Shown here one piece after another: positions 390 to 53,728 of a stretch of DNA of 64,000 nt. The stretch spans positions 15,940 to 79,939 of the forward strand of contig JAZRLA010000002.1 in NCBI GenBank assembly GCA_045646605.1. Reading direction: 5' to 3'. The notes below the pieces were generated by a model that saw nothing but the letters and a program-made list of their open reading frames with translations, had not been told where the DNA came from and searched no databases. Position 1 is the stretch's first letter; each line of letters opens with the position of its first letter. The stretch comes from Candidatus Enterousia sp. (lineage in GTDB: Bacteria; Pseudomonadota; Alphaproteobacteria; Rs-D84). The translations under genes were made by a program, and so were the position numbers.

Positions 390-588
390 TTATTGCGGTT
401 TGGTGCGCATGTATCAAACCGCAAACAGAGATTTCTGTCCAAGACTGATGGTGCGGTAACGCTTAATTCCCATCATAGACAAAGAAAGTTTCTTTGGGAC
501 AGGAAGTGGTCCCATCCCGGGGAAACCCGGATGGAAAGTTGAATTGGTTCGTGCGATTATCAATCGAACCAGAAGTAAGGGTAAAAAG
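390..588 (+). promoter_or_regulatory. rplJ 5' leader (probable L10(L12)4 autoregulatory leader region)
   Basis: A ~200-nt untranslated gap between rplA and rplJ at the conserved position of the L10 leader. The structure was not folded here. Confidence 0.35.
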
Positions 589-1068
589 ATGAAACGCGAA
601 GAAAAGTCAAACTTGATTTCTGCGTTGCAATCGTCCTTGGGCGAAGCGAACGGCGTTTTCGTCGTTGAAAATCACGGCCTTAGTGTAAAAGAAATGGAAG
701 TGTTGCGCAATGAATTGCGTCCACTTGTTTCCGTTTTCAAGGTTGTGAAAAATCGCCTTATGAAGTTGGCGTTAAAAGACACCGATTTCGAACCTGTATC
801 AGACCTTATGAAACGTCCGACCGCCGTTGCTGTTGCAACCGACGCGTTGGCCGTGACCAAGGTTTTGGTAAAATTTGTCGAAGAACATCCAAACCTTACC
901 ATCGTTGGGGGTAAAATGGATGCCGGCATTTTGGGTATGGACGATATTGTGCAATTATCCAAGCTTCCTTCTCTGCTCGAAGTTCGTGGCACAATTGCGC
1001 GTATCTTGGTGGAACCGGGGTCGCGTCTTGCGCGTGTTTCGGCGGAGTATGGAAAAAAGAATCAGTAA
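589..1068 (+). CDS. rplJ: 50S ribosomal protein L10
   Basis: L10-like sequence. Start chosen at ATG 589 (MKREEK…) after an AAGG RBS; the ORF extends to an upstream TTG at 544. Confidence 0.85.
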   Translation: MKREEKSNLISALQSSLGEANGVFVVENHGLSVKEMEVLRNELRPLVSVFKVVKNRLMKLALKDTDFEPVSDLMKRPTAVAVATDALAVTKVLVKFVEEHPNLTIVGGKMDAGILGMDDIVQLSKLPSLLEVRGTIARILVEPGSRLARVSAEYGKKNQ

Positions 1069-1110
1069 TTATTGGAATAACTTTCCAGTAAGAATCGAAG
1101 GAGCAAAAAA

Positions 1111-1479
1111 ATGGCAGACATTCAAAAATTAGTTGAAGAATTGTCAAAATTGACCGTTTTGGAAGCCGTAGAGTTGTCCAAAGCGTTGGAAGAAACATGG
1201 GGCGTTAGTGCCGCCGCCGCGGTTGCAGTTGCCGCAGGTCCGGCCGCAGGTCCAGCCGCCGAAGAAAAGTCCGAATTTGATGTTGTGTTGACGGATATTG
1301 GCGCAAACAAATTGGCGGTCATCAAGGCTGTGAAAGAAATCACAGGTCTTGGATTGACAGAAGCCAAGGCGTTGGTTGAATCTGCACCAAAGACGGTGAA
1401 AGAAGCTGTTGCCAAAGACGAAGCCGAAAAGATGAAGGCATCGATTGAGGCCGCAGGCGCCAAAGTTGAATTGAAATAA
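1111..1479 (+). CDS. rplL: 50S ribosomal protein L7/L12
   Basis: N-terminal dimerisation helix, Ala/Pro hinge ([10 protein letters not shown]) and C-terminal domain (…LKEAKDLVE-like, …KAVKE…GLGL…EAK). Confidence 0.92.
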
Positions 1480-4600: not shown

Positions 4601-5756
4601 AATCTTCCAAATTGCCGAAGGTCACACTATCGAAGCCGGTACGGGTAGTTTGAAACCGTTCATCGGTAAAAAATTAAACCAGGAAGTGTTCGAAGGTATA
4701 AGACCGGCCGATTTCAAAAAGTTGGTCATATCTAACAAGGAAGCCCAGGCGAAAATCGAAGAAATTCGTGATGTGCACATCTTGACTTTGAAACAGTTGA
4801 ATGAAAATGCCGATCGCGAAATCGAAAAGGCGACCGAGAGCAATTCGCTGAATGCCGGTGTTTTGAAAGAAGTCAAGGTTTACATCGCACATAAAATGAA
4901 ATTGCAACCGGGTGACAAAATGGCGGGGCGTCACGGAAACAAGGGTATCGTTTCACGCGTTGTTCCAATCGAAGATATGCCACATATGGAAGATGGAACA
5001 CCGGTCGATATTGTTCTGAATCCGCTTGGCGTGCCAAGTCGTATGAACTTTGGCCAGATTTTGGAAACCCACCTTGGTATGGCGGCGCGCACGCTTGGTG
5101 AACAGATTGGGGCTGTTTTGGACGAAGTTAAACAAAAACGTGCGGTGACCGACGACCTGCGCGCGATAATGGGCAAGATTTATGGCAAAGACATGGCGGA
5201 AAAATTGGCCAAGATGACCGATACGGATGTTCGTGCCAATGCCGCGTTGTTGCGTGATGGTGTGCCGATGGCAACACCGACATTTGACGGTGCGAATGCC
5301 GAAGATATTCGTCGCATGTTAAAATTGGCAAAATTGCCTGAAACAGGTCAGTTCACATTGTATGACGGTGTAACCGGTGAAAAGTTTGCGCGTCCGGTGA
5401 CCGTTGGTGTGATGTATATGTTGAAACTGCATCATTTTGTGGACGAAAAGATTCACGCACGTTCAACCGCAAGTTATTCACTGGTAACGCAACAACCATT
5501 GTCCGGTAAGGCACACATGGGTGGCCAGCGTTTGGGTGAAATGGAGGTCTGGGCACTGGAGGCACATGGTGCCGCGCACTTGCTGCGTGAAATGCTAACG
5601 GTGAAGTCGGACGATATTGTTGGCCGTAACAAGATGTATGAATCCATCATTTCTGGCAGTGACGATATTCAAACCGGCACCCCAGAGGCGTTTAACGTGT
5701 TCGTTCGCGAATTGCGTGGATTAGGCCTGGCAATGACACCAAAAAAAATTGACTAA
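1620..5756 (+). CDS. rpoB: DNA-directed RNA polymerase subunit beta
   Basis: 1378 aa with unmistakable RpoB motifs throughout. Start at ATG 1620 (MAVIQKLRKSFGK…); the ORF-track extension from 1533 is probably not translated. Confidence 0.95.
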   Translation: MAVIQKLRKSFGKSFLQTPLPDLIEIQYNSYKEFLQGDVAPQNRKNKGLQSVFTSMFPIKDYAGAAELEFVEYNLEKPAYNVKECLARKMTYSSKLKLKLKLILWDVAEDGKKSLRDIKEQEIFMGEVPLMTERGSFIASGVERVIVSQMHRAQGVVFATTKEAKIAGNPITYTARIIPEHGSWIDFEESKGVIYVRIDRRRKIPATVLLRCLPCAEDEKKWVAEPRKPTIRGMSDTEILSVFYKRIALNNNGKLWVGDTSVFEGLDKYRLNYDLINPKDKKELAAKGDRLNAKRLGKIMTASKQFGILPDALVGEYLFDPIMSAGEVIYPSGTEITEEVLADIEKLGIKDISLISIDNTTITAHMRNTLVADKTTNREDALIEIYNIIRPGERPTLEAAINLFMRQGFEAAYYDLSPVGRFKMNKRLKIDSGKKPEDERLLTKNDFLAVLKTLTNIIDHKDTIDDIDNLSNRRVRTVGELLEQNFRTGMVRIERLVRESLSSPNIATMQPQDVVNVNPLMSLVAEFLGTSQLSQFMDAYNPLSELEHKRRISALGPGGLNRERAGIDVRDVHPTHYGRLCPINTPEGANIGLINHLASYARVNPYGFIETPYYVVENSKITDKMVYLTADEELGHKIAQGNTPTNDKGVLTEEMVTARVDGEFTRVPRGEIDLIDVEPRQVVSISTGLIPFVENDDANRALMGSNMQRQAVPLMRVQTPLVGTGIEREVARDSRTGKVAKHSGIVESADANRIVVKCMNSRNVVTGVDIYNLEKYERSNNDTILHQKPLVHAGDRISAGDIIADGSSMNYGELALGRNVLVAFVPWRGYNYEDSIVISERISRDDVFTSVKIVEKEIKVRDTQLGPESLTRDIPNVSEEALKNLDESGIIYIGARVKQGDILVGHVSPKSETLLTPEEALLRNIFGEKALNVKDTSLRVGPNEEGTVIGVNVLTRHGVKKDERTQMIELEKIAKINKDRDEEIQIMEKGFADQIFQIAEGHTIEAGTGSLKPFIGKKLNQEVFEGIRPADFKKLVISNKEAQAKIEEIRDVHILTLKQLNENADREIEKATESNSLNAGVLKEVKVYIAHKMKLQPGDKMAGRHGNKGIVSRVVPIEDMPHMEDGTPVDIVLNPLGVPSRMNFGQILETHLGMAARTLGEQIGAVLDEVKQKRAVTDDLRAIMGKIYGKDMAEKLAKMTDTDVRANAALLRDGVPMATPTFDGANAEDIRRMLKLAKLPETGQFTLYDGVTGEKFARPVTVGVMYMLKLHHFVDEKIHARSTASYSLVTQQPLSGKAHMGGQRLGEMEVWALEAHGAAHLLREMLTVKSDDIVGRNKMYESIISGSDDIQTGTPEAFNVFVRELRGLGLAMTPKKID

Positions 5757-5852
5757 AGTGTTAGTGTAAGTGGTTAGTGGTTAGTAAAGAAATGCTAGCC
5801 GTCACTAACCACTAACACCGACCACTAACCACTAAGTAAGGAGCTTAGAAAA
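5757..5852. repeat. rpoB-rpoC intergenic inverted repeat built from GTGGTTAGTG/CACTAACCAC units
   Basis: …GTGTAAGTGGTTAGTGGTTAGT…GTCACTAACCACTAACACCGACCACTAACCACTAAG…. Imperfect long hairpin; the same unit recurs elsewhere in the window. Confidence 0.55.
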
Positions 5853-8800
5853 ATGGCAAATATGTTGCAAAAGATATTTGGACAAATCGAAACAAGGGAA
5901 CAATTTGATGCGTTGCGTGTGACAATTGCATCGCCGGAAGAAATCCTTTCTTGGTCCCATGGCGAAGTTACAAAGCCAGAAACGATAAACTATCATTCGT
6001 TGAAACCGGAACCGGATGGATTGTTCTGTCAAAAGATTTTTGGCCCCGTCAAAGACTATGAATGTGCATGCGGAAAATATAAAAGAATTAAATTCCGTGG
6101 CGTTATCTGTGAACGTTGTGGGGTCGAAGTTGGATCTGCATCTGTTCGTCGTGAACGTATGGGACATATCAAATTGGCGATGCCGGTTGCGCACACTTGG
6201 TTCCTGCGTGAAGGTAAGATTGCGACCCTGTTGAATAACCTGTCGCAAAAGAAATTGGAACAGGTTGTATCCTATGATGCATATATCGTTATTGAACCAG
6301 GGCTTACAAATCTTAAACAATACGATGTCATAAGCGAAGATGAATATCGTGCCGCGGTTGAAGAATATGGTCCGGATGCGTTCCGCGTTGGTATCGGTGC
6401 CGAAGGTGTACGCAGTATTATCGCAAACCTTGATATGGGCGATGAAAGAACACGTCTGCGCGCGGAATTGGCGGAAACAAAATCCGAAGCAAAGCGCAAA
6501 TCCATTATGAAGCAACTTAAATTAGTCGAAGCGTTCCTGGATTCAAAAACCGAACCGCAATGGATGTTGCCGGATATTATTCCGGTTATCCCACCGGATA
6601 TGCGACCACTTGTCACATTGGATGCGGGACATGTTGCGGCATCTGATTTGAACGATTTGTATCGTCGTGTGATTATTCGTAACAATCGTTTGAAACGGTT
6701 TATGGAAATGCATGCACCTGAAATTATCGTTCGCAATGAAAAGCGCATGTTACAAGAAGCCGTTGATTCATTGTTTGATAACGAACACAAAACGCGTCCG
6801 ATGGTTTCGCAAAATCGCCGTCCGCTTAAATCATTGTCTGGGTCATTGCGCGGTAAATCCGGTCGTTTCCGTATGAATTTGTTGGGTAAACGTGTGGATT
6901 ATTCCGGGCGCAGCGTGATTGTGTCTGGGCCATCATTAAAGATGCACCAGGTCGGTTTGCCAAAAGCGATGGCATTGGAATTATTTAAACCGTTCGTATT
7001 TGCACGTTTGATGGCGGGTGATTATGCCAATACATTAAAGACTGCACGTAAAATGGTTGAAAATGGTGAACCGGTGGTGTGGGATATTTTGGAAAAGGTC
7101 ATCCATGAACATCCGGTTTTGCTGAATCGTGCGCCATCTTTGCACCGTTTGTCGTTGTTGGCGTTTGAACCGGTTTTGATTGAAGGCAAGGCAATTCGTT
7201 TGCATCCGTTGGTTTGCAAGGGATTCAATGCGGACTTTGACGGTGACCAAATGGCCGTGCATGTTCCAATTTCATTAGAAGCCCAGTTAGAGGCACGCAC
7301 ATTGATGTTATCTACCAATAACATTTTGTCGCCGGCAAATGGTGAACCTATGACCGTTCCGTCACAAGACATGGTTTTGGGTATTTACTATATTTCGTTA
7401 ATGGATGGTGAACATACCGACAAATCTCCACGGTTTAGTGGTATGGACGAAGTTGAAATGGCATTGGAAAACAAGACAATTACACTGCATACCCCAATTG
7501 TTGCGCGTATCAATGGTAAAACATATAAAACAACCGCGGGTCGTATGATTATCGGGCAATTGTTACCAAAATCTGAAAATATGCCGTTTGATTTGGTGAA
7601 CAAGGTTATGGGTGAACCTGATATTCGTGCGTTACTTGCGACCACATACGAACGTTGCGGTGATAAAGCAATGATTCTGCTTGCCGATGCGTTAAAGAAT
7701 ACCGGGTTTGAACAGGCGGCGCGCAGTGGTATTTCAATTGGTTATGATGACGTTGTTATTCCCGAAGAAAAAGAAACAATGATTGCCGACACCGAAGAAG
7801 CCGCAAAGGATATCGAAGATCAATATCAAAACGGTTTGCTATCGGGTGGTGAACGTTATAACAAACTGATTGATTTATGGCAAAAAACAACCGATCGTCT
7901 TGGTGATTTGTCTTTCGCTGCGCTGGGTCGAAATCACGGTAACGATTGGAACTCTATCTATATGATGGCGGATTCCAAGGCACGTGGTTCGAAACGCCAG
8001 ATTCAACAGCTTGCCGGTATGCGTGGTATGATGTCAAAGCCGGACGGTTCGATTATCGAAGTTCCAATTATTTCGAACTTTAAAGAAGGCCTTACTATGG
8101 CGGAATACTTTACATCAACCCACGGTGCGCGCAAAGGTTTGTCCGATACCGCGTTGAAAACAGCGCAAGCGGGTTATTTGACGCGTCGTTTGGTTGATTT
8201 GGCATTAAACACCGTTATTACCGAACATGATTGTGGAACCAAGGAATATATTACCGCAAAGCCTGTATACCAAGGCAGCACACTTTCCGTTCCGCTTGGT
8301 AACGTTGTTTTGGGTCGCACCGCGGCACATGATATTGTCCATCCAATCACCAAGGAAGTTATCGTTCCGGCCGGCGAACTGGTAACCAAGGCCGCTGCAC
8401 GCAAGATAAACGAATCTGGTTTGCCAAGTGTTGATGTGCGCAGTGTTCTAACGTGTTGCAGTGATGGTTTGTGCGCAAAGTGCTATGGTATGGATTTATC
8501 GCGTCAATCACTGGTTCATGTTGGCGAAGCCGTCGGCGTTGTCGCAGGTCAATCCATTGGTGAACCGGGAACCCAATTGACATTGCGTACCTTCCACATT
8601 GGTGGTATCGCGTCCGGTGGAACCGAAAGTCATTATATAGAGGTTCCAGTCGCCGGTAAAATAAAGTTAATTGGTGTTAACACAATTAAAAATTCTGCGG
8701 GCCGCGTTGTTGTCCTTTCCCGTAATGGCAAGGTCGTGGTTGAATCACCATCTGGTGAAGAATTATTTAGTTGCGGTTTGCCGTATGCATCTATGTTGAT

Positions 8801-32193: not shown

Positions 32194-32209
32194 GGGCGCG
32201 GACGCGCCC
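32194..32209. terminator. Bidirectional hairpin terminator GGGCGCG-GAC-GCGCCC
   Basis: Sits between convergent proS (+) and 32252..32746 (-), with an A-run upstream and T-rich downstream. The same hairpin recurs at 22161-22176. Confidence 0.5.
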
Positions 32210-32251
32210 ACTTTGGTTGTATGGATTTATAATATTTTTATCACAATATCA

Positions 32252-32746
32252 TCATTTAACTTCATTCAATATCAAGTAGAAATCTGCGATATGTTCTGGG
32301 CTCATACCATTTAGTAAACTAACCGATGCGACAGAACCGAACGGGGCATAAAAATTGTTATCGAAGTTATAGTATTTACGGATACTATCGTTTATCTTAT
32401 TTTCCAGTGCGGACATTTGCATATGAATCATCATATTCCAAACTTTTTCTTGGATTTCATCATATTTGTAATCATCAAACCTGTAATTGTCCCAAAAATA
32501 ATTCAATATCTGTTCTGCTTGCGATGCTTCTAATTCTTTTATGCTTTCTGGAAAATTGTAACGCGGATGCGAATTACGGTATATATCCAGCTTTTCTTGA
32601 TTTACACCATACGCATTTATTCGTGCGGTATTATTGTCGGTTTGTGTGTTTTCATATTCAAGTATTTTATTAACAAAATCACTACGCCTATCGGCAACAG
32701 CAACCATTGGGACCAGCAATAATAATACAAACACTAACTTTTTCAT
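32252..32746 (-). CDS. Secreted hypothetical protein (possible periplasmic partner or immunity protein for the upstream GH108 protein)
   Basis: Signal peptide MKKLVFVLLLLVPMVAVA. AT-rich codon usage. Start overlaps the stop of the 32779..33636 gene by 4 nt. No known domain. Confidence 0.55.
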   Translation of the reverse strand: MKKLVFVLLLLVPMVAVADRRSDFVNKILEYENTQTDNNTARINAYGVNQEKLDIYRNSHPRYNFPESIKELEASQAEQILNYFWDNYRFDDYKYDEIQEKVWNMMIHMQMSALENKINDSIRKYYNFDNNFYAPFGSVASVSLLNGMSPEHIADFYLILNEVK

Positions 32747-32778
32747 ACACTTATTATTGCAGGATATATACAAGAAAA

Positions 32779-33636
32779 TCAATATCTATTTGTACGATTT
32801 GTCCATCCGTTGCCATATTTATCCCATCCGGGTAAATCCTTTAAGTATTCTATTCTGTTATCTTTTAAATCTTGCATAAAATCATCGATTTTATCGGTTG
32901 GAATACTGTTTAGTGCATCTATGGTTTTATCACCAATTTTCCCATCAACTTTTAAATTTTCGCCCATTGAATCATTTAGTATTTCTTGGACAAGTTTACC
33001 AACGTTTCTGAAATTACTCATAACACCCATATCAAATATAGCATTTGCAATACGGTCATCTTCTATATCACTAATACGACGGTCATCGTAGAAATTTTCC
33101 CCGTATATTTGTCTTGCCTGATTATTTGTTAAATCTTTTACCGCGTCCGGAAAGTTAAAGTCAGGGTGTTCCGTGTTATATTTATTTAGTGTCGGTTGGG
33201 TTATGCCAGAATTTGTGGGTTGGTCTATCTTATTTGGGTTATCAACATATCCGCCTTCTTCCGCCATAGTTTTACGAATTATATTTTGCTTTCGTTTATC
33301 AACGATCGGGTCATCATTATCATCCAGTTCTAGTTCTTCTATCCAACAACGGCAATTTAGATGATGTGGATGTTCCGGGATATCTTCTTCAGTTTCATAA
33401 ATAGTGCCGGAAAAACTTAGGCAATCATCACAAGTTTTTTCATCTTTTTCTGTATGCCAACACCACGCTCTTCTTATTGTTATACTGCGTCCGGTTGCAT
33501 CAATCGTGCTGTTGCCATATTTATTTTCGAAATAATTTTGAACTCGTCTTGTAACATTTTGGTGTTCTGGATTGCTAGAATTTGCATACGCATCACTTTG
33601 CATAAGGTTTAATATATTTTCTGGTATTTTGTTCAT
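32779..33636 (-). CDS. Mu F-like N-terminal segment fused to GH108 lysozyme and a PG_binding_3 peptidoglycan-binding domain
   Basis: N-terminus …TCDDCLSFSGTIYETEEDIPEHPHHLNCRCWIE… (HPxxNCRC signature of the Phage_Mu_F/SPP1 gp7 family). Middle …EEGGYVDNPNKIDQPTNSGIT…LTNNQARQIYGENFY… (GH108). C-terminus …DGKIGDKTIDAL…GWDKYGNGWTNR (PG_binding_3). Confidence 0.7.
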   Translation of the reverse strand: MNKIPENILNLMQSDAYANSSNPEHQNVTRRVQNYFENKYGNSTIDATGRSITIRRAWCWHTEKDEKTCDDCLSFSGTIYETEEDIPEHPHHLNCRCWIEELELDDNDDPIVDKRKQNIIRKTMAEEGGYVDNPNKIDQPTNSGITQPTLNKYNTEHPDFNFPDAVKDLTNNQARQIYGENFYDDRRISDIEDDRIANAIFDMGVMSNFRNVGKLVQEILNDSMGENLKVDGKIGDKTIDALNSIPTDKIDDFMQDLKDNRIEYLKDLPGWDKYGNGWTNRTNRY

Positions 33637-33779
33637 AATTTATCCTTTTGTTAAATAAAAAATCCGCTAAAAAGCGGACAAAAAAATGACACAAATGTGT
33701 CTTAAAACCAAGAGACATTTTATCATAAAAAACCAAAAAAATCAAGATGATATGTTATATCTCCCACGCCCGTTTTATA

Positions 33780-34349
33780 TCAATCTTTAAACAATATATC
33801 CATTATCGTATCAAATCTTTCTTTCAATTCTTTTTGCGATTCGGGACTTAGTTTTCGATAATCGCGCGCCAATTTGTTTTTAACAAATCCTTTTCCTTCC
33901 GGTATCGACAAATTCATTTTGTTATACGCCAAACTAAACAAAGATGGGATGTTATCAAAATGTGCAATAGCATCCGCATCGGCAAGAATTTGTTCTTCCG
34001 CCGTGTTGCGTGCGTCACTTTTACTGCCCCGATGGTGTAAAACGCATTTTTCAACCAAATCAATTTTTTCGGCCGGATATCCAAGTTCGGATAGTATCGA
34101 ACGTGTCATTTTCGCACCGTATATTTCATGTTCTTCGCGTGGACCAAATTCCGCGGCCATTGCCATATCGTGGAACAGTGCCCCCAGTTCGCAAACTTCA
34201 ACATCCGCACCGCGTTTAACCGCCAAATCATGCGCGTTTTGAAAGACATATTTTATATGCTCGTTCCAAAAATCATATCCGTCTTTTTCAAAAGATTTCT
34301 GGGTATATTCCAATAATTTGGCTTTTACGATTTCAACAATGTTTTGCAT
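33780..34349 (-). CDS. HD-domain phosphohydrolase
   Basis: H…HD motif (…ALFHDMA…), later His/Asp residues (…HH…DADAIAH…); 189 aa. Confidence 0.65.
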   Translation of the reverse strand: MQNIVEIVKAKLLEYTQKSFEKDGYDFWNEHIKYVFQNAHDLAVKRGADVEVCELGALFHDMAMAAEFGPREEHEIYGAKMTRSILSELGYPAEKIDLVEKCVLHHRGSKSDARNTAEEQILADADAIAHFDNIPSLFSLAYNKMNLSIPEGKGFVKNKLARDYRKLSPESQKELKERFDTIMDILFKD

Positions 34350-34351
34350 GA

Positions 34352-35104
34352 TTAATATTTCCTTTGATTTCCAAAAACAGGCATAGATACATTTTTTACA
34401 ATGTTTATAAAATTAGTTGTGGTATATTCAATCCCTGGATCGATTTGTTTGTTCTGACCTTTATTAAAAATATACCAAGGTCTTGTTCCAACAATTTTTA
34501 CTACCTTGCCATCGGTATATAAACTATCTTCTTCTGGTAATGCAATTACCGGCTCATGCATGGAATATTGTGTTAAATATTCTGTGGCTTTTTTGTGATG
34601 TTCCGCGTCTTGATTTGTGTAATGTGCGGTAAGTGAAAAACCAAATAATGAATTAAAACCGCGTGTATCTTTTAATTCAACATTGTTTGTATCCATATAG
34701 CTAATTGCTTCAATATCTTTGCCGAATATTGCCGCCCCAGCACTTCCACCATAAACCAACCCGCCGTTAGCTGTATATTCTTTTATTCGTTCAAACGCAC
34801 CACTGTCTTTTAACAGTTTTAATAGTTTATAAGTGTTTCCACCACCAATAAATATAGAAGAATAATTTGATAAATTTTTTTCTGAAATTTCGTCGGCGGA
34901 TTGTATAACTTCGATTTCGCCATGTTTAATATTTTTAAATTCACGAACCAAAAATTTTTTACAATTTTCATAGCCGGCATCATAATGATTCCAAGCCAAA
35001 GGAATGTATAAAATTGGTTTTTGCGAATCAATCAAACTTTCGAACAATTTATTTGTTATAGTGGTTTTATCTGCGCTGCCACCACCACCCAGTATAATAG
35101 CCAT
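34352..35104 (-). CDS. Peptidase S51 family (dipeptidase E / cyanophycinase-like)
   Basis: …ILGGGGS… N-terminus, GGGNTYKLL and the nucleophile elbow GGSAGAAIFG. Start taken at MAIILGGGG; the ORF-track extension overlaps parC. Confidence 0.7.
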   Translation of the reverse strand: MAIILGGGGSADKTTITNKLFESLIDSQKPILYIPLAWNHYDAGYENCKKFLVREFKNIKHGEIEVIQSADEISEKNLSNYSSIFIGGGNTYKLLKLLKDSGAFERIKEYTANGGLVYGGSAGAAIFGKDIEAISYMDTNNVELKDTRGFNSLFGFSLTAHYTNQDAEHHKKATEYLTQYSMHEPVIALPEEDSLYTDGKVVKIVGTRPWYIFNKGQNKQIDPGIEYTTTNFINIVKNVSMPVFGNQRKY

Positions 35105-35133
35105 AATTACACCCTTTTTAGAATTGTAAAAAA

Positions 35134-37404
35134 TTATTTTCCAAACTTCCCGCTTCGTGGAAAACCGACGGGGATTGTGCGGCCCTGGGTTGCGCGCCGG
35201 CCGACCCACGGCGTCCAATCGTCAAGTTTCGTTGTTCCGCGCCCAGTTGTCCAACCGAACCCGTCCGCCGCGTTAAAGAACATCACGTCCAAAACATACG
35301 TCCGTTCGGCATTGTATTTCTGTAAAATCACACCCTTGCCACGAACCATTTCCGGGATTTCGGTTGCCGGAAAAATCAAAATCTTGTCATTTGAACCGGA
35401 CATCGCAACCGTGTCACCCGTGACCCGAACACAGAACGTTGCGGGATTCGCATCATCGACATTCATAACCTGTTTCCCAGTGCGCGTTTGCGCCAAACAG
35501 TTTTCACCCGCAACAATAAATCCGTTTCCATGCCGCGACACCAACAAATATTTCGCGGACATATCCAAAACGAATGCGTTCACAATTGCTTCTTCGGCGC
35601 CGATATCAACCATCATACGCACCGATTCACCAAACCCGCGCGCCGACGGCAAATCATTTGCGGCCAACGTGAACATGCGCCCTGACGCACCAAACAGGTT
35701 TATTTTATCGGTGGACATCGCGTGAAATGCAAATTGCAATTCATCGCCCTCTTTGAATTTCAAATCAAGTGCATTCAAATCCATATGCCCCTTGGCCGCG
35801 CGAATCCAACCCATTGTGGACAAGATTATGGTCAACGGTTCTTTTTCGATAAATTCTTCGGCATTTACGGTGATTTCTTCGGTCTGTGCCGCCCAAGTTG
35901 TGCGCCGCCGCCCAAGTGCGGTCTTTTTATCATATTGCTTTTTAATATCCGCGAACCAGGCCTTTATCTGATTGTTCTGAATTTCTTCATCTTGCAACAA
36001 CGCAACCAATTGTTCGCGTTCCGCACGCAGGTTTTTATCTTCGCGCCGAATTTCCATTTCTTCCAATTTACGCAACGCGCGCAGGCGGGTGTTCAAAATC
36101 GCCTCTACCTGAACCTCGGTCAATTTAAATTCCGCCATAAGCACGGCCTTTGGATCATCTTCGGTCCGGATAATTTCAATCACGCGGTCAAGGTTCAGAT
36201 ATACAATCAGCAATCCGCCCAAAATTTCAAGCCGTTTATCGATGTTGGTCAACCGCCACCGCGACCGCCGGCAAAGAACATTTTTCTGATGCCGAATAAA
36301 TTCGGTCAGCACATCGCGAATCCCCATCACACGTGGCGCGCCGTTTGAATCGATAACATTAAAGTTCATATTAAACCGATATTCCAAATCGGTCAGGGCG
36401 AACAAATGCGCCATCATTTTATCCGCGGGCACATTGCGACTTTTTGGTGTAATGACAATGCGAACATCGGTCGTCGATTCATCGACGATATCATCAACCA
36501 GTGGCAATTTCTTTGCGTCAATCATTTCGCCGATTTGCTCAACCAACTTTGATTTAATAATGCCGTACGGGATTTCGGTAATTACAACCTGGTATCCACC
36601 GCGGTCAAGTTCTTCGATTTCATAGCGCGCGCGAATACGGAATGCACCCTTGCCGGTTTCATAGTTTTTAACAATCGTGTCGAAATCGTCAACAAGGATG
36701 CCACCGGTTGGAAAATCCGGCCCAATCATCTTTTTCATAATTTGCGCGGTTGTGGATTCCGGTTTATCAACCATAAGGGTCAGAGCATCGCAAACCTCCG
36801 CCACATTATGCGTCGGGATATTCGTCGCCATACCGACCGCAATACCCATGCCACCGTTCGCAAGCAAATTTGGAAACGCACCCGGCATAACCACCGGTTC
36901 AACCGTTGTGCCGTCAAAGTTCGGCATCATATCGACACTGTCTTCGTCAATGCCGTCCATAATCAGCATTGCCGCCTCGGTCATCTTGGATTCAGTATAA
37001 CGATATGCCGCCTGGGGGTCGCCGTCGATATTTCCAAAATTCCCTTGGCCATCAATCAGCGGATAACGCACGGAAAAATCCTGCGCAAGTCGCACCATCG
37101 CGTCATAGACCGACGAATCGCCGTGCGGGTGATAGTGCCCAAGCACATCACCAACAACGGTCGCACATTTGCGAAACGCCGCGGCGGGCGATAATTTTTG
37201 CCGCAACATAGAATACAAAATGCGCCGATGCACGGGCTTTAAACCATCGCGCACATCGGGCAGGGCGCGCGACACAATCGTGCTGACCGCGTACGACAAA
37301 TACCGCGTGGACAGCGCGTCCGCCAATTGTTGTGAATCAATTCTTTCGATTATTTCTTTACTCATAACGACATGAAACATAGAACATTTAGAAAAAAATA
37401 ACAA
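35134..37404 (-). CDS. parC: DNA topoisomerase IV subunit A
   Basis: GyrA/ParC N-terminal domain with the catalytic Tyr context (…[10 protein letters not shown]…) and …HPHGDSS… 743-756 aa without a GyrA box. The true start is probably an internal Met (MFHVVM/MSKEII, 37365-37380). Confidence 0.85.
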
Positions 37405-48375: not shown

Positions 48376-49185
48376 CTAAAAACATTTACTATGGCAACTG
48401 TAAAGTGTCATCGGTGGCAATGTGGCAAGGACGGTTGTTGCAAAAAGTTTTCCTTGTTCGGGATTGTCTTTCAAACATTTCTGTAAAGCCGGGTTTTCGT
48501 ATAATACATTGGCGGTCACTGCAACCGTAAATGTTTCTTTGGCATCTTTACCGGGAATTGTTTCCAATGTTCCGTCGCAACATAATTCTTTACAACGTTT
48601 GCGTATATCAGCGGTTGTAAAGATATTTTGCGAACCGGTTTCACTTAAAACCGGGATAAGGTAATTTTTATCACAATTGCCCAATGCGGAATACCCGTCT
48701 TTTTGTTTTTCCAATATCGCGCCTTCCCAATTAAAATTATATAAATTATGCAGGACAAAGCAATCTGTATCCTTGGTCCAACATTTACCTTCGTGAAAGT
48801 TTTTATCCGTATCGATGCATACGCAACTTTTGCCATCCCATTTTGCAATATCTTTGTGCTTTTCGCAATCTGCTTGGACCTCGGCAAGTGTTTTTACTTT
48901 TTCTTGTCGCCGCAAAAGTTCATTTTTTGCCGACGTGATTTGTGCATCCATTTCATTATTTTTATTTTTTAATGCAATGTTCCCAACGACACCTGCCGCG
49001 GTAAGTCCAAGTGTTGAAATTCCCGCAACTTTGAATCCGGTGACTTTTTTTGTACATTGCTCTAATGTTGCAAGTTTTTGATTTTTTTCATCCACCAATT
49101 GCCTAATCAGTGTTTCATCGCTAACCGCATTTACATTATCAATCATACCAAACATCGCAATTATAATATAAGAAATTTTCCGCAT
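48376..49185 (-). CDS. Secreted protein with a C-terminal Cys-rich domain (269 aa)
   Basis: Signal peptide. N-terminal module paralogous to 49197..49568 (coiled segment, then the Gly-rich hydrophobic stretch VAGISTLGLTAAGVVGNIAL). About 16 Cys in the C-terminal half. Confidence 0.55.
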   Translation of the reverse strand: MRKISYIIIAMFGMIDNVNAVSDETLIRQLVDEKNQKLATLEQCTKKVTGFKVAGISTLGLTAAGVVGNIALKNKNNEMDAQITSAKNELLRRQEKVKTLAEVQADCEKHKDIAKWDGKSCVCIDTDKNFHEGKCWTKDTDCFVLHNLYNFNWEGAILEKQKDGYSALGNCDKNYLIPVLSETGSQNIFTTADIRKRCKELCCDGTLETIPGKDAKETFTVAVTANVLYENPALQKCLKDNPEQGKLFATTVLATLPPMTLYSCHSKCF

Positions 49186-49196
49186 GTTTATATCCC

Positions 49197-49568
49197 TTAT
49201 TTTGAAATGTGTTCGGCCGCATCCGTCGCCGTGGTTGTGGCATTGACTTGGTTTTTTAATTCGTTGAATTCCGCCTTTTTATCAGACAAAGTATTCGCCT
49301 GTTTTATTGCGGCGACACCGGTTCCAACGATTCCAATACCGCCAATGACCGTGGCGGCAATCCAAGATTTGCGTTGCTGTTCACAAAGGGCGATATCATT
49401 GTCAATCGTTGCAATGTCTTCGCGCAGTGTCGCGATAATTTCGCTGGGGCTCATGCCGGCGGCATTTGTTACATAATTATCAACCGCTTTTGGATTATGA
49501 TGCTTAACGGCGGCGGTGGCCCCATTACAAACCATCACCATAAATAAAATAAATAAAGTTTTTTTCAT
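49197..49568 (-). CDS. Secreted hypothetical protein (123 aa), paralogous to the N-terminus of 48376..49185
   Basis: Signal peptide MKKTLFILFMVMVCNGATA; …IAATVIGGIGIVGTGVAAIKQ… segment. Confidence 0.55.
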   Translation of the reverse strand: MKKTLFILFMVMVCNGATAAVKHHNPKAVDNYVTNAAGMSPSEIIATLREDIATIDNDIALCEQQRKSWIAATVIGGIGIVGTGVAAIKQANTLSDKKAEFNELKNQVNATTTATDAAEHISK

Positions 49569-50196: not shown

Positions 50197-50281
<85 letters not shown>

Positions 50282-50374: not shown

Positions 50375-50485
50375 TTAATACATCGGATAATCGCGCAGCG
50401 GCCCATTCGGCCGTGACAGGTCAGATTTAACCCCGCACGCACACAGCACAAACGCACACAACAAAATTAAAACAATTTTTTTCAT
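50375..50485 (-). CDS. Very small hydrophobic ORF (36 aa), possible secreted peptide or lipoprotein
   Basis: MKKIVLILLCAFVLCACGVKSDLSRPNGPLRDYPMY. Signal-like N-terminus with a weak lipobox. Low confidence. Confidence 0.2.
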   Translation of the reverse strand: MKKIVLILLCAFVLCACGVKSDLSRPNGPLRDYPMY

Positions 50486-50589: not shown

Positions 50590-50712
50590 GTCTCGCTGCA
50601 GCGTAAGCGAAAGTGGATGGCAGGGCCACTCAAGCAATTCACGAGTTGATTTTATTCGTGAATTGTTAATATTCGGAAAAGATATTAAAGTGTTTTTGAA
50701 TAACTATATTTA
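50590..50712. repeat. Island structured repeat, copy C1 (variant 5' hairpin, att-like core and module 2)
   Basis: …TCGCTGCAGCGTAAGCGA…TGGCAGGGCCACTCAAGCAATTCACGAGTTGATTTTATTCGTGAATTGTTAATATTCGGAAAAGATATTAAAGTGTTTTTGAATA. Confidence 0.6.
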
Positions 50713-50738
50713 ACCACCTGTTATGTAATAACTTTGTT

Positions 50739-51428
50739 TTATAAGTGTAATTGGTTATCCTTGTATTTTTCTTTTATTAATTGTGCGTATCTTAATGCAG
50801 CACATTTTATCAGGGATTCGCATTTTGTATAACCATCTTTTAACATTTGTTGTGCAGGACATACATCAGGTGTTGAAACTTGGCATTTTTCACAAGAAAT
50901 ATTTTGTTTTGGCATACAATCGTGCGTATCCCATGGTTTGTGCCACTTACATCCAGCACAAGCACCAAGAACACTCATCGAATCAAAAATATATAATTGA
51001 TCCAAGCGTTGTGATTGTATATTAACTTCCACGCAAGAACCAACAAGAAACGAGGGACCGTAAAATGTTAAAACATATGGGACAGAATATTTTTGCAACC
51101 TTTTAAGCATTTCGCATTCTTGCACTTCGTTCGCTGTACGATCTATCAATTTCTTGCAACATGTATTTCCACGCATACCATCAATAGAAATGAATCTTAT
51201 TTCCGTAAAATGTTGCAATTGTTCACGAAAACAATATTCGTTTTTCCATCCCAATACAGGTTTTTGTAAATTTTCTTTCGAAACATGAATACTTTCTGTA
51301 TCTGTCGAGCGATTATATTGTGCTGTGTATACCATATCTTTTAATGCAGGACATTGCTGTGATTCTATATAACACCCATAGCATTGAAAGGCGATACAAT
51401 TATCTTTTGTATAAAATATTCTTTTCAT
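50739..51428 (-). CDS. Cys-rich hypothetical protein (229 aa), possible Fe-S or Zn protein
   Basis: About 24 Cys, including CIAFQCYGC (Cx4Cx2C) near the N-terminus, CC, CAGC and CEKC. No signal peptide. AT-rich codons. Confidence 0.5.
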   Translation of the reverse strand: MKRIFYTKDNCIAFQCYGCYIESQQCPALKDMVYTAQYNRSTDTESIHVSKENLQKPVLGWKNEYCFREQLQHFTEIRFISIDGMRGNTCCKKLIDRTANEVQECEMLKRLQKYSVPYVLTFYGPSFLVGSCVEVNIQSQRLDQLYIFDSMSVLGACAGCKWHKPWDTHDCMPKQNISCEKCQVSTPDVCPAQQMLKDGYTKCESLIKCAALRYAQLIKEKYKDNQLHL

Positions 51429-51484
51429 ATTAAAAACTTTTACATGATTATAATGTATGTGTTCCCAATATCAATATAAAAAAA

Positions 51485-51690
51485 GTTCGTAAATCAGCAA
51501 AACGGTCTCTGTTTTCAACACCTAACTTTCGAACTCACAGAACTATTGGAAATCCAATCAAAAAACCACCCGTTTGGGTGGTTTGAATTTTTGGCAGGGC
51601 CATCTGTGCAATTCACGAGTTGATTTGATTCATGAATTGTTGTTGTTTGGAAAAGAAATTAAGATTTTTTTGAATAAATACTATCATATC
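51485..51690. repeat. Island structured repeat, copy C2 (module 1 + TGGCAGGGCC + module 2)
   Basis: AGTTCGTAAATCAGCAAAACGG…CTTTCGAACTCACAGAACTATTGGAAATCCAATCAAAAAACCACCCGTTTGGGTGGTTTGAATTTTTGGCAGGGCCATCTGTGCAATTCACGAGTTGATTTGATTCATGAATTGTTGTTGTTTGGAAAAGAAATTAAGATTTTTTTGAATA. Confidence 0.65.
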
Positions 51691-51727
51691 TGAACTATGT
51701 TATGCAAATTATTGACATTTATATATT

Positions 51728-52603
51728 TTGTATTATATTATAAACGACAATAAGAGAAAAAACAAATTGGCAATTCAAATAGATTTTGACCGAGCCTTGC
51801 ATGATATGGAATATCATGATTCAACAACACGGGTAACCTTTGGGCCGTATTCGCCGACATATCTTATCGCAACAGATGAAGATGCAAACCAAGATATCAA
51901 ACGTTATATGTATAACGGAAAAGATAAAAAATACTGCGAAAAAGTTCTGACCGTATCGGCATCTGGCGACCATCCATTATTTTGTAAAATGTATGGTGCT
52001 AAACAAATTACTACTTTTGATATAACATATGCATCCAAAATAATTATGGATATTAAAACACTGGCTATAAAAAAGCTTACTTTTGACAACTATTGGCAAT
52101 TATTAAAAGATTTATGGAACAATCCGAACATTACATCTGTGTCAAATTTTGAGAGTATTATGCAAAAATTAGATTCAAACGAACAAAAATATATTCATAC
52201 AATGGATAGAAAATTCGCATTATTTAACTTTGGAACACCGCCAGGTTATTATCATGTTTCGGATACAAATAACCAAAAATCACTTTACGAAGGATTACAT
52301 CTGGCTGATTTGCCAACATTTCCTTTTATTTGGACTGATATTGAAGACCTGGACGCAAAATTGGGTGATAATACATATGATTTTATACATTTATCCAATA
52401 TCTTAGATTTTGTAAATGATGACATCAAAGTATCTGTTTTAAAACAATTGACGCAAAGATTGAATTATGGTGGTCGTATATTAATGCGCAGAATAAATGG
52501 CAATTATCAATTAGTCGACATATGTCAAAACATAGAAAAACAATCAGATGATTTAGGCTTTGTTAATCGTTGGGAACAAATGATTTTATTAAAATGCAGA
52601 TAA
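51728..52603 (+). CDS. Hypothetical protein (291 aa); weak resemblance to the DUF3419/BtaA-like SAM-binding family
   Basis: …VLTVSASGDHPLF… and …IHLSNILDFV… resemble DUF3419 signatures. AT-rich. The assignment is tentative. Confidence 0.5.
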   Translation: MYYIINDNKRKNKLAIQIDFDRALHDMEYHDSTTRVTFGPYSPTYLIATDEDANQDIKRYMYNGKDKKYCEKVLTVSASGDHPLFCKMYGAKQITTFDITYASKIIMDIKTLAIKKLTFDNYWQLLKDLWNNPNITSVSNFESIMQKLDSNEQKYIHTMDRKFALFNFGTPPGYYHVSDTNNQKSLYEGLHLADLPTFPFIWTDIEDLDAKLGDNTYDFIHLSNILDFVNDDIKVSVLKQLTQRLNYGGRILMRRINGNYQLVDICQNIEKQSDDLGFVNRWEQMILLKCR

Positions 52604-52620
52604 TCAAAACAATTTAATAG

Positions 52621-52815
52621 TTCGTAAATGTATGAAACGGCGGCGGTTTTTGATATCCGACTTACGAACTCACAGAACTATTGGAAATCCAATCAAAAAA
52701 ACACCCAAACGGGTGTTTTTGATTCTTGGCAGGGCCATCTGTGCAATTCACGAGTTGATTTGATTCATGAATTGTTGTTGTTTGGAAAAGATGTTAAGGT
52801 GTTTTTGAATACTAC
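52621..52815. repeat. Island structured repeat, copy C3
   Basis: Same two-module architecture as C2. The module-1 terminator hairpin reads CACCCAAACGGGTG here, against CACCCGTTTGGGTG in C2 (same stem, loop reverse-complemented). Confidence 0.65.
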
Positions 52816-52868
52816 CAACTTGACTTTGTAACGATTTTTGCTACTTTCTCAAATGAAAAGAGATATAT

Positions 52869-53273
52869 ATGTCAGATATTTCAAATAAAGAATACATCAC
52901 TATAAATAAAGATGGGGTTTTTGTTGGTGGAGAACCCGCAATTTATTATCGTGGCAAAAAAATGCATTCACAAAGTTTGACACAAACATATTTCCTTTAT
53001 ATACAAGAGAAATTTCCAGTAATTGAAGAAGTTCACGTCTTATCATCAAAAACCGAAGCCAAACTATACAATATAAATGAAAAGCCATCACAACAAGATG
53101 GAAAACATACATGGTGTCGTGTAAAATTTACTAACGGTAAAATGGGATATTGGACACCAAATTTAACGTGGAATAATGCGGTAGAAACCTATTGCTATTG
53201 TGTTGCTGATATTGGTTGGGATGCTGAATTTACCAAAAAATTATTCTTACCAAAAAACGAGAATGAAAGATGA
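52869..53273 (+). CDS. Hypothetical protein (134 aa)
   Basis: Clean ORF. Sigma70-like promoter (TTGACT-17-TACTTT) and RBS upstream. No recognisable domain. Confidence 0.5.
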   Translation: MSDISNKEYITINKDGVFVGGEPAIYYRGKKMHSQSLTQTYFLYIQEKFPVIEEVHVLSSKTEAKLYNINEKPSQQDGKHTWCRVKFTNGKMGYWTPNLTWNNAVETYCYCVADIGWDAEFTKKLFLPKNENER

Positions 53274-53277
53274 TAAA

Positions 53278-53412
53278 TTAAAAAGTTTGTAAATTGGCAA
53301 AACGGTGGCTATTTTTACTACACAACTTACGAACTCGTGAAAGTGTTGGAAAACAAAGAAAAATCGGGTATAAAACCCGATTTGTTTATTTTGGCAGGCC
53401 TACTCGGATTTG
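53278..53412. repeat. Island structured repeat, copy C4 (module 1 only) ending in a 21-nt copy of the tRNA-Glu 3' end
   Basis: GTTTGTAAATTGGCAAAACGG…ACTTACGAACTCGTGAAAGTGTTGGAAAACAAAGAAAAATCGGGTATAAAACCCGATTTGTTTATTTTGGCAGGCCTACTCGGATTTG. The final 21 nt match the 3' end of the tRNA-Glu gene (20 of 21 identical). Confidence 0.65.
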
Positions 53413-53554
53413 TTTGCATACGCTCACCACTCGTAAGACTCGAACTTCGCTATGCTCGTTCTCGTCAACTATCGTGTGAACCGCAGTTCAAATTCGCCAA
53501 GGTAAACCAAAAGGATAAAAAACAACACCCAAAGCGGGTGTTGTTCCTTATCCT

Positions 53555-53629
53555 TGGCAGCCCTACTCGGATTTGAACCGGGATTCTCGCCTTGAAAGGG
53601 CGGTGTCCTAACCATTAGACGATAGGGCC
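53555..53629 (-). tRNA. tRNA-Glu (anticodon TTC)
   Basis: Reverse complement GGCCCTATCGTCTAATGGTTAGGACACCGCCCTTTCAAGGCGAGAATCCCGGTTCAAATCCGAGTAGGGCTGCCA is close to E. coli tRNA-Glu. Anticodon loop CTTTCAA. Confidence 0.85.
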
Positions 53630-53650: not shown

Positions 53651-53728
53651 TGGCGGGATTGACGGGGCTCGAACCCGCGACCTTCTGCGTGACAGGCAGA
53701 CGCTCTAAACCAGCTGAGCTACAACCCC
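53651..53728 (-). tRNA. tRNA-Asp (anticodon GTC)
   Basis: Reverse complement GGGGTTGTAGCTCAGCTGGTTTAGAGCGTCTGCCTGTCACGCAGAAGGTCGCGGGTTCGAGCCCCGTCAATCCCGCCA. Anticodon stem TCTGC/GCAGA with loop CTGTCAC. Confidence 0.85.

Follow-up and report, generated by a model that had tools for sequence, protein, structure and literature searches.

In the genomic islands at ssrA of Dehalococcoides (ssrA-GIs) and in the accretion of ICESt1 with cis-mobilizable elements (CIMEs), several units follow one another downstream of a single small RNA gene (PMC3146451). The ssrA-GIs carry direct repeats of about 20 base pairs (bp) of the gene 3′ end, and many of their units lack an integration module and are presumably mobilised in cis or in trans (PMC3146451). 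Here, we describe a similar stack in a 64,000-nucleotide (nt) stretch of Candidatus Enterousia sp. (contig JAZRLA010000002.1, positions 15,940 to 79,939; hereafter, the window). In this window, an array of short cassettes stands downstream of a tRNA-Glu(UUC) gene, and the last 21 nt of the gene are duplicated beside it. The explanation that we prefer, giving it somewhat better than even weight, is that the duplicate is a junction in a cassette array that is anchored at tRNA-Glu and has grown through site-specific recombination at a CTGCCA(A) core.

As in CIMEs and ssrA-GIs, tandem units that have the same attachment (att) core and lack a recombination module were found in the array. The ssrA-GIs are, however, multi-gene islands, many of which possess a CcrB-like serine integrase module, whereas the cassettes of the array described here have a single gene, measure 0.5–2.5 kb and carry some 200 bp of conserved sequence at their junctions, and a cognate integrase was not found. 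Furthermore, the common core is only CTGCCA, except in an additional module that we call S. The tycheposons of Prochlorococcus also have specific tRNA targets and partial tRNA repeats between elements, and newcomers push older elements inward (bioRxiv 10.1101/2020.12.28.424599). They differ from our units in possessing their own tyrosine or large serine recombinase, replication genes, and attachment sites of about 40 nt; the units described here have neither recombinase nor replication genes, and their end modules are uniform and conserved. In the composite islands of the staphylococcal cassette chromosome (SCC), elements and recombinase-less pseudo-elements likewise stand in tandem at the 3′ end of one gene with short direct repeats (discussed in PMC3146451). 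In SCC, however, a protein gene (rlmH/orfX) is targeted, each unit spans tens of kb, and the Ccr large serine recombinases are known.

Integrons and clusters of attC sites lacking integron integrases (CALINs) resemble the array in several respects: one reserved site, mostly single-open reading frame (ORF) cassettes of similar size, diverse and largely unknown cargo including GNAT-, methyltransferase- and transporter-type genes, conserved structured sites between the cassettes, ORF-less units, and many arrays without an adjacent integrase. Short single-ORF cassettes separated by conserved structured sites are indeed what was found at our locus. In contrast to integrons, no intI was found, and the anchor is a tRNA 3′ end and not attI. 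The junctions have neither RYYYAAC or GTTRRRY cores nor a G/TT crossover; their 40-copy consensus is CTGCCA/AAA, and the arms AGTTCGTAAG and ATTTACGAACT of the repeat that we call M fit neither integron core consensus. The cassettes mostly point towards the anchor, and they are not the promoterless co-oriented cassettes of integrons: the units end in terminators, and the cassettes have promoter-like sites of their own. Integrons have been reported to be entirely absent from Alphaproteobacteria (PMC9668308). In full-text literature searches on Enterousia and on cassette arrays beside tRNA genes, no description of this array was found. An integrase-less tRNA-Glu cassette array is apparently undescribed.

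The tRNA-Glu anchor and the cassette junctions

The tRNA-Glu(UUC) gene lies at positions 53555–53629 on the minus strand (ARAGORN; Rfam, 55.8 bits). Its 3′ end, ...GAGTAGGGCTGCCA, occupies 53555–53575, reads TGGCAGCCCTACTCGGATTTG on the plus strand, and is the attB/attI-like anchor of the array. The duplicate lies at 53392–53412 on the minus strand (CAAATCCGAGTAGGCCTGCCA on the tRNA strand; TGGCAGGCCTACTCGGATTTG on the plus strand) and was recovered in the repeat search, the S alignment and the pairing analysis. It has the same orientation as the tRNA end and is identical to it at 20 of 21 positions; the repeat finder lengthens the match to 22 nt at 95%. The duplicate and the tRNA-Glu end are separated by 142 nt (53413–53554). 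When three or fewer mismatches were allowed, the 64 kb contained no site other than these two, and no match appeared in 100 dinucleotide-preserving shuffles. Thus, chance or an artefact is ruled out as the source of the duplicate, and the same-orientation copy of the tRNA end that was reported in the original prediction is confirmed.

The array (50618–53554) contains three units, each of which, read along the plus strand, comprises a C repeat, one ORF, and an M repeat with a terminator. The C repeats, which form an 89-nt family with 81–82% identity, begin with TGGCAGGGCC on the plus strand at 50618, 51592 and 52727. On the tRNA strand they end in GGCCCTGCCA, and their cores carry the CTGCCA end of the tRNA; the proposal that the cores of C1–C3 continue the repeat series leftwards holds. 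The M repeats ("module-1") start at 51480, 52615 and 53280 and form an 84-nt family with 74–79% identity. A G+C-rich terminator hairpin after M abuts the next TGGCAG, and 11 terminator-like hairpins were found in the island region, against 2.7 expected. The junction of cassette 3 falls immediately after the CTGCCA of the duplicate. The 3.3-kb stretch between tRNA-Leu(UAG) and tRNA-Glu has a G+C content of 30–39%, compared with about 45% in the window. Pattern and profile searches of the 64 kb gave no further location for C, M or the 142-nt segment, and none of the three matched an Rfam family.

The same architecture was found behind tRNA-Glu (UUC or CUC) in seven related genomes and on 76 rumen or gut metagenome contigs. 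All relatives are metagenome assemblies. The metagenome loci (designated by L numbers, as are the genome loci) were obtained with a C-end pattern, which gave 97 loci: 76 with arrays and 21 chance matches in an unrelated gene. Wherever a locus holds both tRNA-Glu and the repeats (28 of 28 metagenome loci and seven of seven genome loci), the array is located 3′ of the tRNA gene in the same orientation. The anchor is always tRNA-Glu(UUC) or tRNA-Glu(CUC), and no other tRNA serves as one. Every tRNA-Glu examined, of either type, has a [G/A]CTGCCA end followed by an A-rich stretch and a terminator.

Presence or absence at tRNA-Glu is polymorphic, and the cassettes differ in every relative. In L001 and L002 (94% and 92% Lgt identity, respectively), tRNA-Glu is directly followed by a terminator and M, without S between them, and this sequence is what follows the duplicate in the window. 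In L005, the 142-nt segment comes after the tRNA as in the window, and in L002 the same segment stands at the far end of a single-cassette array. Several C and M repeats are present in L006 and L009; in L003, a short module accompanies tRNA-Glu, and cassettes are missing. The array size reaches at least five units (L130 and L169). We extracted 94 cassettes, which have an inner length of 222–2395 nt and mostly one ORF, and 68 of the 94 cassette ORFs are antisense to the tRNA. Fifty-one protein families were distinguished among 76 cassette ORFs. The cargo includes GNAT, methyltransferase, ABC, MFS, HAD, PNP_UDP, peptidase S51 and S66, and NERD proteins, and many unknown ones.

At all junctions that were classified, the boundary is located exactly after CTGCCA. 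The left partners are of five kinds [tRNA-Glu(UUC), tRNA-Glu(CUC), C, a divergent X-like C, and the S end], and the right partners are of at least four kinds (terminator plus M, terminator plus S, an 80-nt filler F, and others). The junctions include 40 C/M, 10 C/S, 12 C/F, 13 tRNA/M, seven tRNA/S and two S-end/M joints. The left partners have only about 6–10 nt in common, namely the core, and TGG two bases upstream of the core. This is too little for homologous recombination to make these joints. Thus, the joints point to recombination at a short fixed core. The stacking of units at the tRNA, as originally proposed, is also borne out, the stack being variable across relatives and each unit being joined at this same point.

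Hairpins are present in C, M, the terminator and S. The M stem (general form, AGTTCGTAA...TTACGAACT; in M3, AGTTTGTAA...TTACGAACT) is conserved by sequence. RNA covariation in this stem was rejected because there was essentially no compensatory change. Pairing between C and M across the core was not conserved in the junction alignment.

The C repeats also have a coding pattern. On the plus strand, in the frame that starts from the TGG of the core, they encode the peptide WQGHLCNSR[VT][DN][FL][IM][HR][ED]LL.FGK[DE][IV]K[VT]FL and a few further residues; in the window, these stretches of about 31–35 amino acids (aa) followed by a stop lie at 50618–50713, 51592–51694 and 52727–52831 (plus strand). 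The codon-position entropies in this frame are 0.61, 0.41 and 0.99. Of the single-base codon differences, a share of 0.43 is synonymous, compared with 0.12–0.16 in the other two frames of the same strand, and two stops occur in the C frame, compared with 16 and 100 in the other two. No conserved start codon was found in the C frame, and no longer protein with a C-encoded end was found among 5.8 billion sequences. A long "master" protein ending in the C peptide was rejected, since the database matches were only 43–104-aa ORFs with unrelated N-termini. The C frame may be what is left of a gene that once extended across the attachment site of a master element; alternatively, it may encode a small peptide whose initiation is unusual. 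A 67-aa ORF (52628–52831, plus strand) has its ATG in the M2 loop, crosses the terminator and the core, and reaches into C3. Of the 40 junctions elsewhere, only about five leave a comparable frame open. Thus, the 67-aa ORF is probably not a conserved gene, and a conserved ORF across M, terminator, core and C was rejected.

One further right-hand module was observed. A 38-nt module, AAGTTCAAAATCCYGATTTTTTACGAACAAACTAAGCG, follows tRNA-Glu in the cassette-less L003 (6084–6121) and was also found after C cores in L188 (11494–11537) and L172 (1402–1442), and so is another interchangeable module on this side. L003 was rejected as a clean empty site for L188 and L172: only a 44-nt module is in common, and the flanks differ.

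Module S and the duplicate

The duplicate belongs to a conserved structured module, S, of which it forms the 3′ arm. The body of S is the 142-nt segment between the duplicate and tRNA-Glu (53413–53554, minus strand; ORF-less; recognised by its profile with nhmmer, its terminator and its fold). This segment had been taken for a degenerate copy of M in the original prediction. However, the M profile misses the segment, and a separate S profile, which was built from three copies, matches about 20 loci. S is the immediate 3′ neighbour of tRNA-Glu in the window, L005, L099, L103, L104, L150 and L187. It comes after a C core, either within the array or at its end, in L002, L115, L145, L147, L155, L160, L165, L167, L182, L184 and L192, and in L002 and L160 it occupies the far array end. 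S was not found beside tRNA-Glu in L001 and L002, the closest genomes. It occurs up to three times within one array, at varying positions, and accompanies quite different cassettes.

The duplicate is thus not simply a scar of the present island genes, as had been supposed, but an arm of the conserved S palindrome. The att-like reading is partly supported: the repeat of the tRNA end bounds extra DNA, the tRNA being followed directly by M in L001 and L002, but no integrase was found in the island, in the window, or generally beside the arrays. In relatives without the island genes the pattern is mixed: the duplicate is present in many of them and missing in others, including the closest.

S always starts just after a core, with a terminator, and always ends in a tRNA-Glu-like CAAATCCGAGT[A/G]GGG. 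Two forms of the end were distinguished. In L099, L103 and L150, the end is a perfect copy of the tRNA through CTGCCA (20–24 nt), followed by a terminator and M. In at least 12 loci, the end is without CTGCCA and runs into a conserved AATTAAGAAAATCTTAAAAAATCGACA module. In the window, the terminator hairpin of the tRNA operon lies within S at 53511–53555. An imperfect palindrome of about 115 nt (53392–53510) occupies the rest, and its 5′ arm, CCCC.GGGTTTGAACCGCGGTTCACACG, forms base pairs with the 3′ arm, at whose end the duplicate stands.

The 5′ arm contains an inverted T-arm-like motif (15/19), and 80 of 2000 shuffles scored equally well. ARAGORN and Rfam (the latter also at E ≤ 10) detected no tRNA, tmRNA or known RNA family in 53392–53554. 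A tRNA pseudogene or a tRNA-like RNA was therefore rejected, as there was no model match and only the 15/19 inverted T-arm-like stretch. We also compared S with miniature inverted-repeat transposable elements and repetitive extragenic palindromes. A palindrome with conserved ends is present. Genome-wide dispersal was not seen: S has one copy in the 64-kb window, and in 80 genome loci it occurs only behind tRNA-Glu.

In the tRNA-Glu of the window, an uncommon A is present in GAGTAGG (53560–53575), and it recurs in the S end of the window (53397–53412). The tRNA and the adjacent S agree at this position in L005 too, and the distal S of L002 differs. The rare A common to the tRNA and the neighbouring S suggests sequence exchange between the two.

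In L102, a 122-nt stretch including CTGCCA is present twice (1–122 and 1022–1143) with 100% identity. One copy comes after tRNA-Glu(CUC) and the other after a C core about 900 nt away. The stretch forms a long hairpin (CTCCGTCGCGA...TCGCGACGGAG); it may be either an S-like palindromic module that belongs to CUC arrays or a repeat introduced by the assembly.

Proposed mechanism and alternative explanations

In the mechanism that we propose, the recombination site would be the 6–7-bp core CTGCCA(A), the same sequence as the CCA end of tRNA-Glu. Along the tRNA strand, a cassette would consist of a terminator hairpin, M, usually one gene with its own promoter, and a C repeat ending in GGCCCTGCCA. 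The attP/attC-like site of a free cassette would be the stretch C-core-terminator-M, of about 205 bp. By recombining with the tRNA end or with any core already present in the array, the cassette would become inserted and displace older units outward, so that the process would be a tandem accretion of cis-mobilizable units, with a recombinase encoded elsewhere acting in trans. S would be an ORF-less unit of the array (142 nt plus the duplicate) that starts just after a core. Since its 3′ arm copies the last 21 nt of tRNA-Glu, it would recreate the landing site 163 nt downstream of the gene. With this second landing site, the three cassettes of the window would hang on the S copy and not on the tRNA itself. 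Homologous recombination within C and M would also reshuffle the units. Our data show the anatomy, the precise place of the junctions, the confinement to tRNA-Glu, the variation between relatives and the passage of one cassette from species to species; the joining by an enzyme encoded elsewhere, its identity, and the role of S as a secondary site are the steps that we infer.

Besides the fixed joints, several results are consistent with this mechanism. The cassette of the 291-aa gene (ORF291) shares 95.5% identity with its L189 copy across 1141 nt, whereas the core genes of L189 and the window are only 79–85% identical, and the cassettes that neighbour the L189 copy differ from those of the window. 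The excess of ORF291 identity over core-gene identity supports the mobility of cassettes between species. The AT-richness of the island is a further consistent feature. Across all loci, the points at which near-identity breaks off on the C side are concentrated at the core. In 40 junctions, there is almost no variation in the final 28 nt of C (TCGTGAATTGCACAGATGGCCCTGCCA), a conservation that is partly ascertained, as the metagenome loci were retrieved with a C-derived pattern, and that also includes eight positions left free in the pattern and extra copies outside the pattern selection. A nearly invariant C end together with a sequence-conserved M stem is what protein-binding attP-like arms would look like.

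Other results weigh against site-specific accretion. The identity between the window and L189 is a mosaic: it is about 99% from the middle of C to the first M arm and about 75% in the rest of M and the terminator. This pattern has the appearance of exchange by homology within the repeats and not of transfer from core to core. On the M side, the near-identity breakpoints of all loci form three clusters. The mosaic and the scattered M-side breakpoints indicate that homologous exchange inside the repeats also operates. Among the 97 assembled loci, no circular cassette contig with terminal overlap or circular permutation was detected. No isogenic empty and occupied pair was seen among the array loci; apparent pairs were rejected, as they belong to the unrelated human-gut gene that matches the pattern by chance (21 of the 97 loci). 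S alone (163 bp) is too small to move as a double-stranded circle. No recombinase was found with Pfam and PHROGs in the three island ORFs and the 55 other ORFs of the window, and no tyrosine, serine or HUH recombinase was found beside the arrays with motif searches and phmmer (about 0.5 Mb of loci), except in L107 and L115.

The recombinase motif scans of all loci returned only L070 (an unrelated Xer), L107 and L115. In L107 and L115, small serine recombinases (Resolvase plus HTH_7) are located beside X-like cores, and L107 also contains a 194-aa ORF with tyrosine-recombinase motifs (HMGRH...HRSIQTTQRYY). The ORFs of these regions are at 529–1152 (plus), 4910–5479 (minus) and 5659–7574 (minus) in L115, and at 6811–7413 (minus) and 6031–6615 (minus) in L107. 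These enzymes are candidates; they are present in two of the 76 loci, which is not an association. One of the resolvases has as neighbours an RloB/AAA_21 gene pair of the defence type and a degenerate core that resembles tRNA-Glu(CUC), ATTGAGACTGCCA. Scans of viral contigs gave chance matches or nothing, and phage and plasmid collections gave no match to the array. A phage or plasmid origin was thus rejected, there being no real match in these collections.

A wider form of the site-specific explanation is that the array belongs to a self-standing, integron-like system of gene capture in gut Alphaproteobacteria. The CCA end of tRNA-Glu would be the reserved site, the C/M junctions of about 200 bp or the S hairpin would be the cassette sites, the recombinase would act in trans, possibly on folded sites, and the core-frame peptide would be a functional part or a relic of a split gene. 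We put this forward tentatively and regard it as rather doubtful. At the other extreme, there may be no dedicated site-specific system. C and M would then be conserved modules (promoter, leader and terminator) that provide portable homology, strains would exchange cassettes by homologous recombination after DNA uptake (by transformation or gene-transfer-agent particles), and the cores and the duplicate would be old, inert remnants. The breakpoints of the window/L189 mosaic inside C and M, the three positions of the M-side breakpoints, the lack of a recombinase near the arrays, and the promoter-like sites and terminators of the cassettes fit such an exchange. The coding-type substitution pattern of C fits as well, because it indicates that C is constrained for something besides recombination. 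However, homology fails to explain joints at a fixed position between partners that share only CTGCCA(AAA), and it fails to explain why arrays grow only at tRNA-Glu or why C and M are more conserved than the protein genes across genomes with 62–67% Lgt identity. Taken together, we consider an array made by homologous exchange without a dedicated system unlikely.

The two remaining alternatives concern the duplicate and S. The duplicate might be the displaced original 3′ end of the tRNA (attR) of one integrase element, which has since been deleted to a 142-nt stub without a present role. A 21-nt direct repeat does flank DNA that is missing beside the tRNA in L001 and L002, L099, L103 and L150 have their perfect copies, and the arrangement resembles the tycheposons and the Dehalococcoides ssrA islands, where partial tRNA or tmRNA repeats are left after integration. 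A stub of this kind is, however, hard to reconcile with an S module that is kept in about 20 loci of different species, with a conserved hairpin and compensatory changes, and that occurs up to three times per array at different positions; nor was an integrase remnant detectable in the island. We therefore judge the stub improbable. Alternatively, S might be a small structured RNA gene or an RNA-level signal, a rod-like hairpin with a tRNA-like acceptor and CCA tail that could, for instance, help to process or stabilise the transcripts of the tRNA operon or of the cassettes. The likeness of S to the tRNA end would then serve the RNA and not recombination. The consensus fold of S (alifold) has an energy of −31.8 kcal/mol and 33 pairs, six of which are changed on both sides, and 94.9% of the cells in the alignment are paired, compared with 20–43% when the partners are slid; these tests comprised six sequences, so that the covariation is limited. 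Two invariant G.U pairs on the tRNA-sense strand, which would be A.C mismatches on the other strand, and a fold z-score of −1.9 with RNA parameters, versus +0.9 with DNA parameters, also argue for a function as RNA. On the other hand, single S sequences fold only moderately better than shuffles, and in other copies both strands fold about equally. S is flanked by two terminators, has no recognisable promoter, and matches neither Rfam nor tRNA models, and an RNA function leaves unexplained why S always starts and ends at a core. To a function of S as RNA we give slightly less credence still than to the stub.

Surroundings of the array and significance

The units of the window are arranged as follows from the tRNA outward. 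Cassette 3 has its tRNA-proximal end at 53280–53391, which comprises M3 (53280–53363) and a bidirectional terminator hairpin (53361–53383). Its gene (52869–53273, plus strand) encodes a 134-aa protein without a family match and is followed by C3 (52727–52815; core TGGCAGGGCC at 52727–52736). The whole unit has a 94% identical copy in L124. Cassette 2 begins with M2 (52615–52698) and its terminator hairpin (52698–52720), together 52615–52726. Its 291-aa product, encoded at 51728–52603 on the plus strand, is DUF3419/S-adenosylmethionine (SAM)-methyltransferase-like, a strong promoter-like TTGACA-16-TATATT is present at 51712–51739, and C2 lies at 51592–51680 (core, 51592–51601). Cassette 1 comprises M1 (51480–51563) with its terminator hairpin (51563–51584; together 51480–51591), a gene for a Cys-rich 229-aa protein without a family match (50739–51428, minus strand), which is inverted with respect to the other two cassette genes, and C1 (50618–50706; core, 50618–50627), the far end of the array. 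The 28 nt past the last C core (50590–50617; TCCACTTTCGCTTACGCTGCAGCGAGAC on the tRNA strand) match the sequence directly after tRNA-Glu(CUC) in L120 (5381–5410) at 25 of 28 positions. As far as this sequence likeness goes, it hints that the window array, or its end, is partly derived from a tRNA-Glu(CUC) locus.

Beyond the array, a 36-aa lipoprotein gene (50375–50485, minus strand) forms a conserved flank that was also found in L002 and L009, and tRNA-Leu(UAG) (50197–50281, plus strand) is the conserved outer boundary of the variable region. On the opposite side, tRNA-Asp(GUC) (53651–53728, minus strand; ARAGORN and Rfam) is the upstream partner of tRNA-Glu. The pair is also present in L001, L002, L003, L005 and L006, and the Lgt gene, by which the organism was recognised as related to Candidatus Enterousia (an uncultured alphaproteobacterium of the gut), adjoins these tRNAs. 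Just outside the array, between nrdG and rpmG, two minus-strand genes (48376–49185 and 49197–49568) encode signal-peptide-like proteins without a family match, one of which is Cys-rich. A second AT-rich block (32200–35200; 34–36% G+C) has minus-strand ORFs, including one for a 285-aa protein with GH108 lysozyme, PG_binding_3 and a Phage_Mu_F fragment, and may be another acquired segment. The 21 chance loci of the metagenome scan come from a human-gut bacterium and have a clean 4.2-kb insertion polymorphism near tRNA-Met (L116, 1845–6101, versus L112, L119, L135, L140, L153, L163, L181 and L185), which is unrelated to the array.

A partial tRNA repeat alone is routine. The unusual point is its context, a uniform array of single-gene cassettes without an integrase. 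The conserved junctions offer concrete test substrates (the tRNA-Glu end and the 205-bp C/M site) together with a few candidate enzymes, and the cassette pool of rumen and gut metagenomes can be explored with the C, M and S profiles. The array recurs across a clade of uncultured, small-genome gut alphaproteobacteria, the relatives of Candidatus Enterousia, and its cargo crosses species. If a dedicated recombinase exists, the array would be a second, independent solution to the task of integrons, in a class that has been reported to be integron-free. If this is true, it would also explain how a flexible gene pool is available to these reduced genomes.

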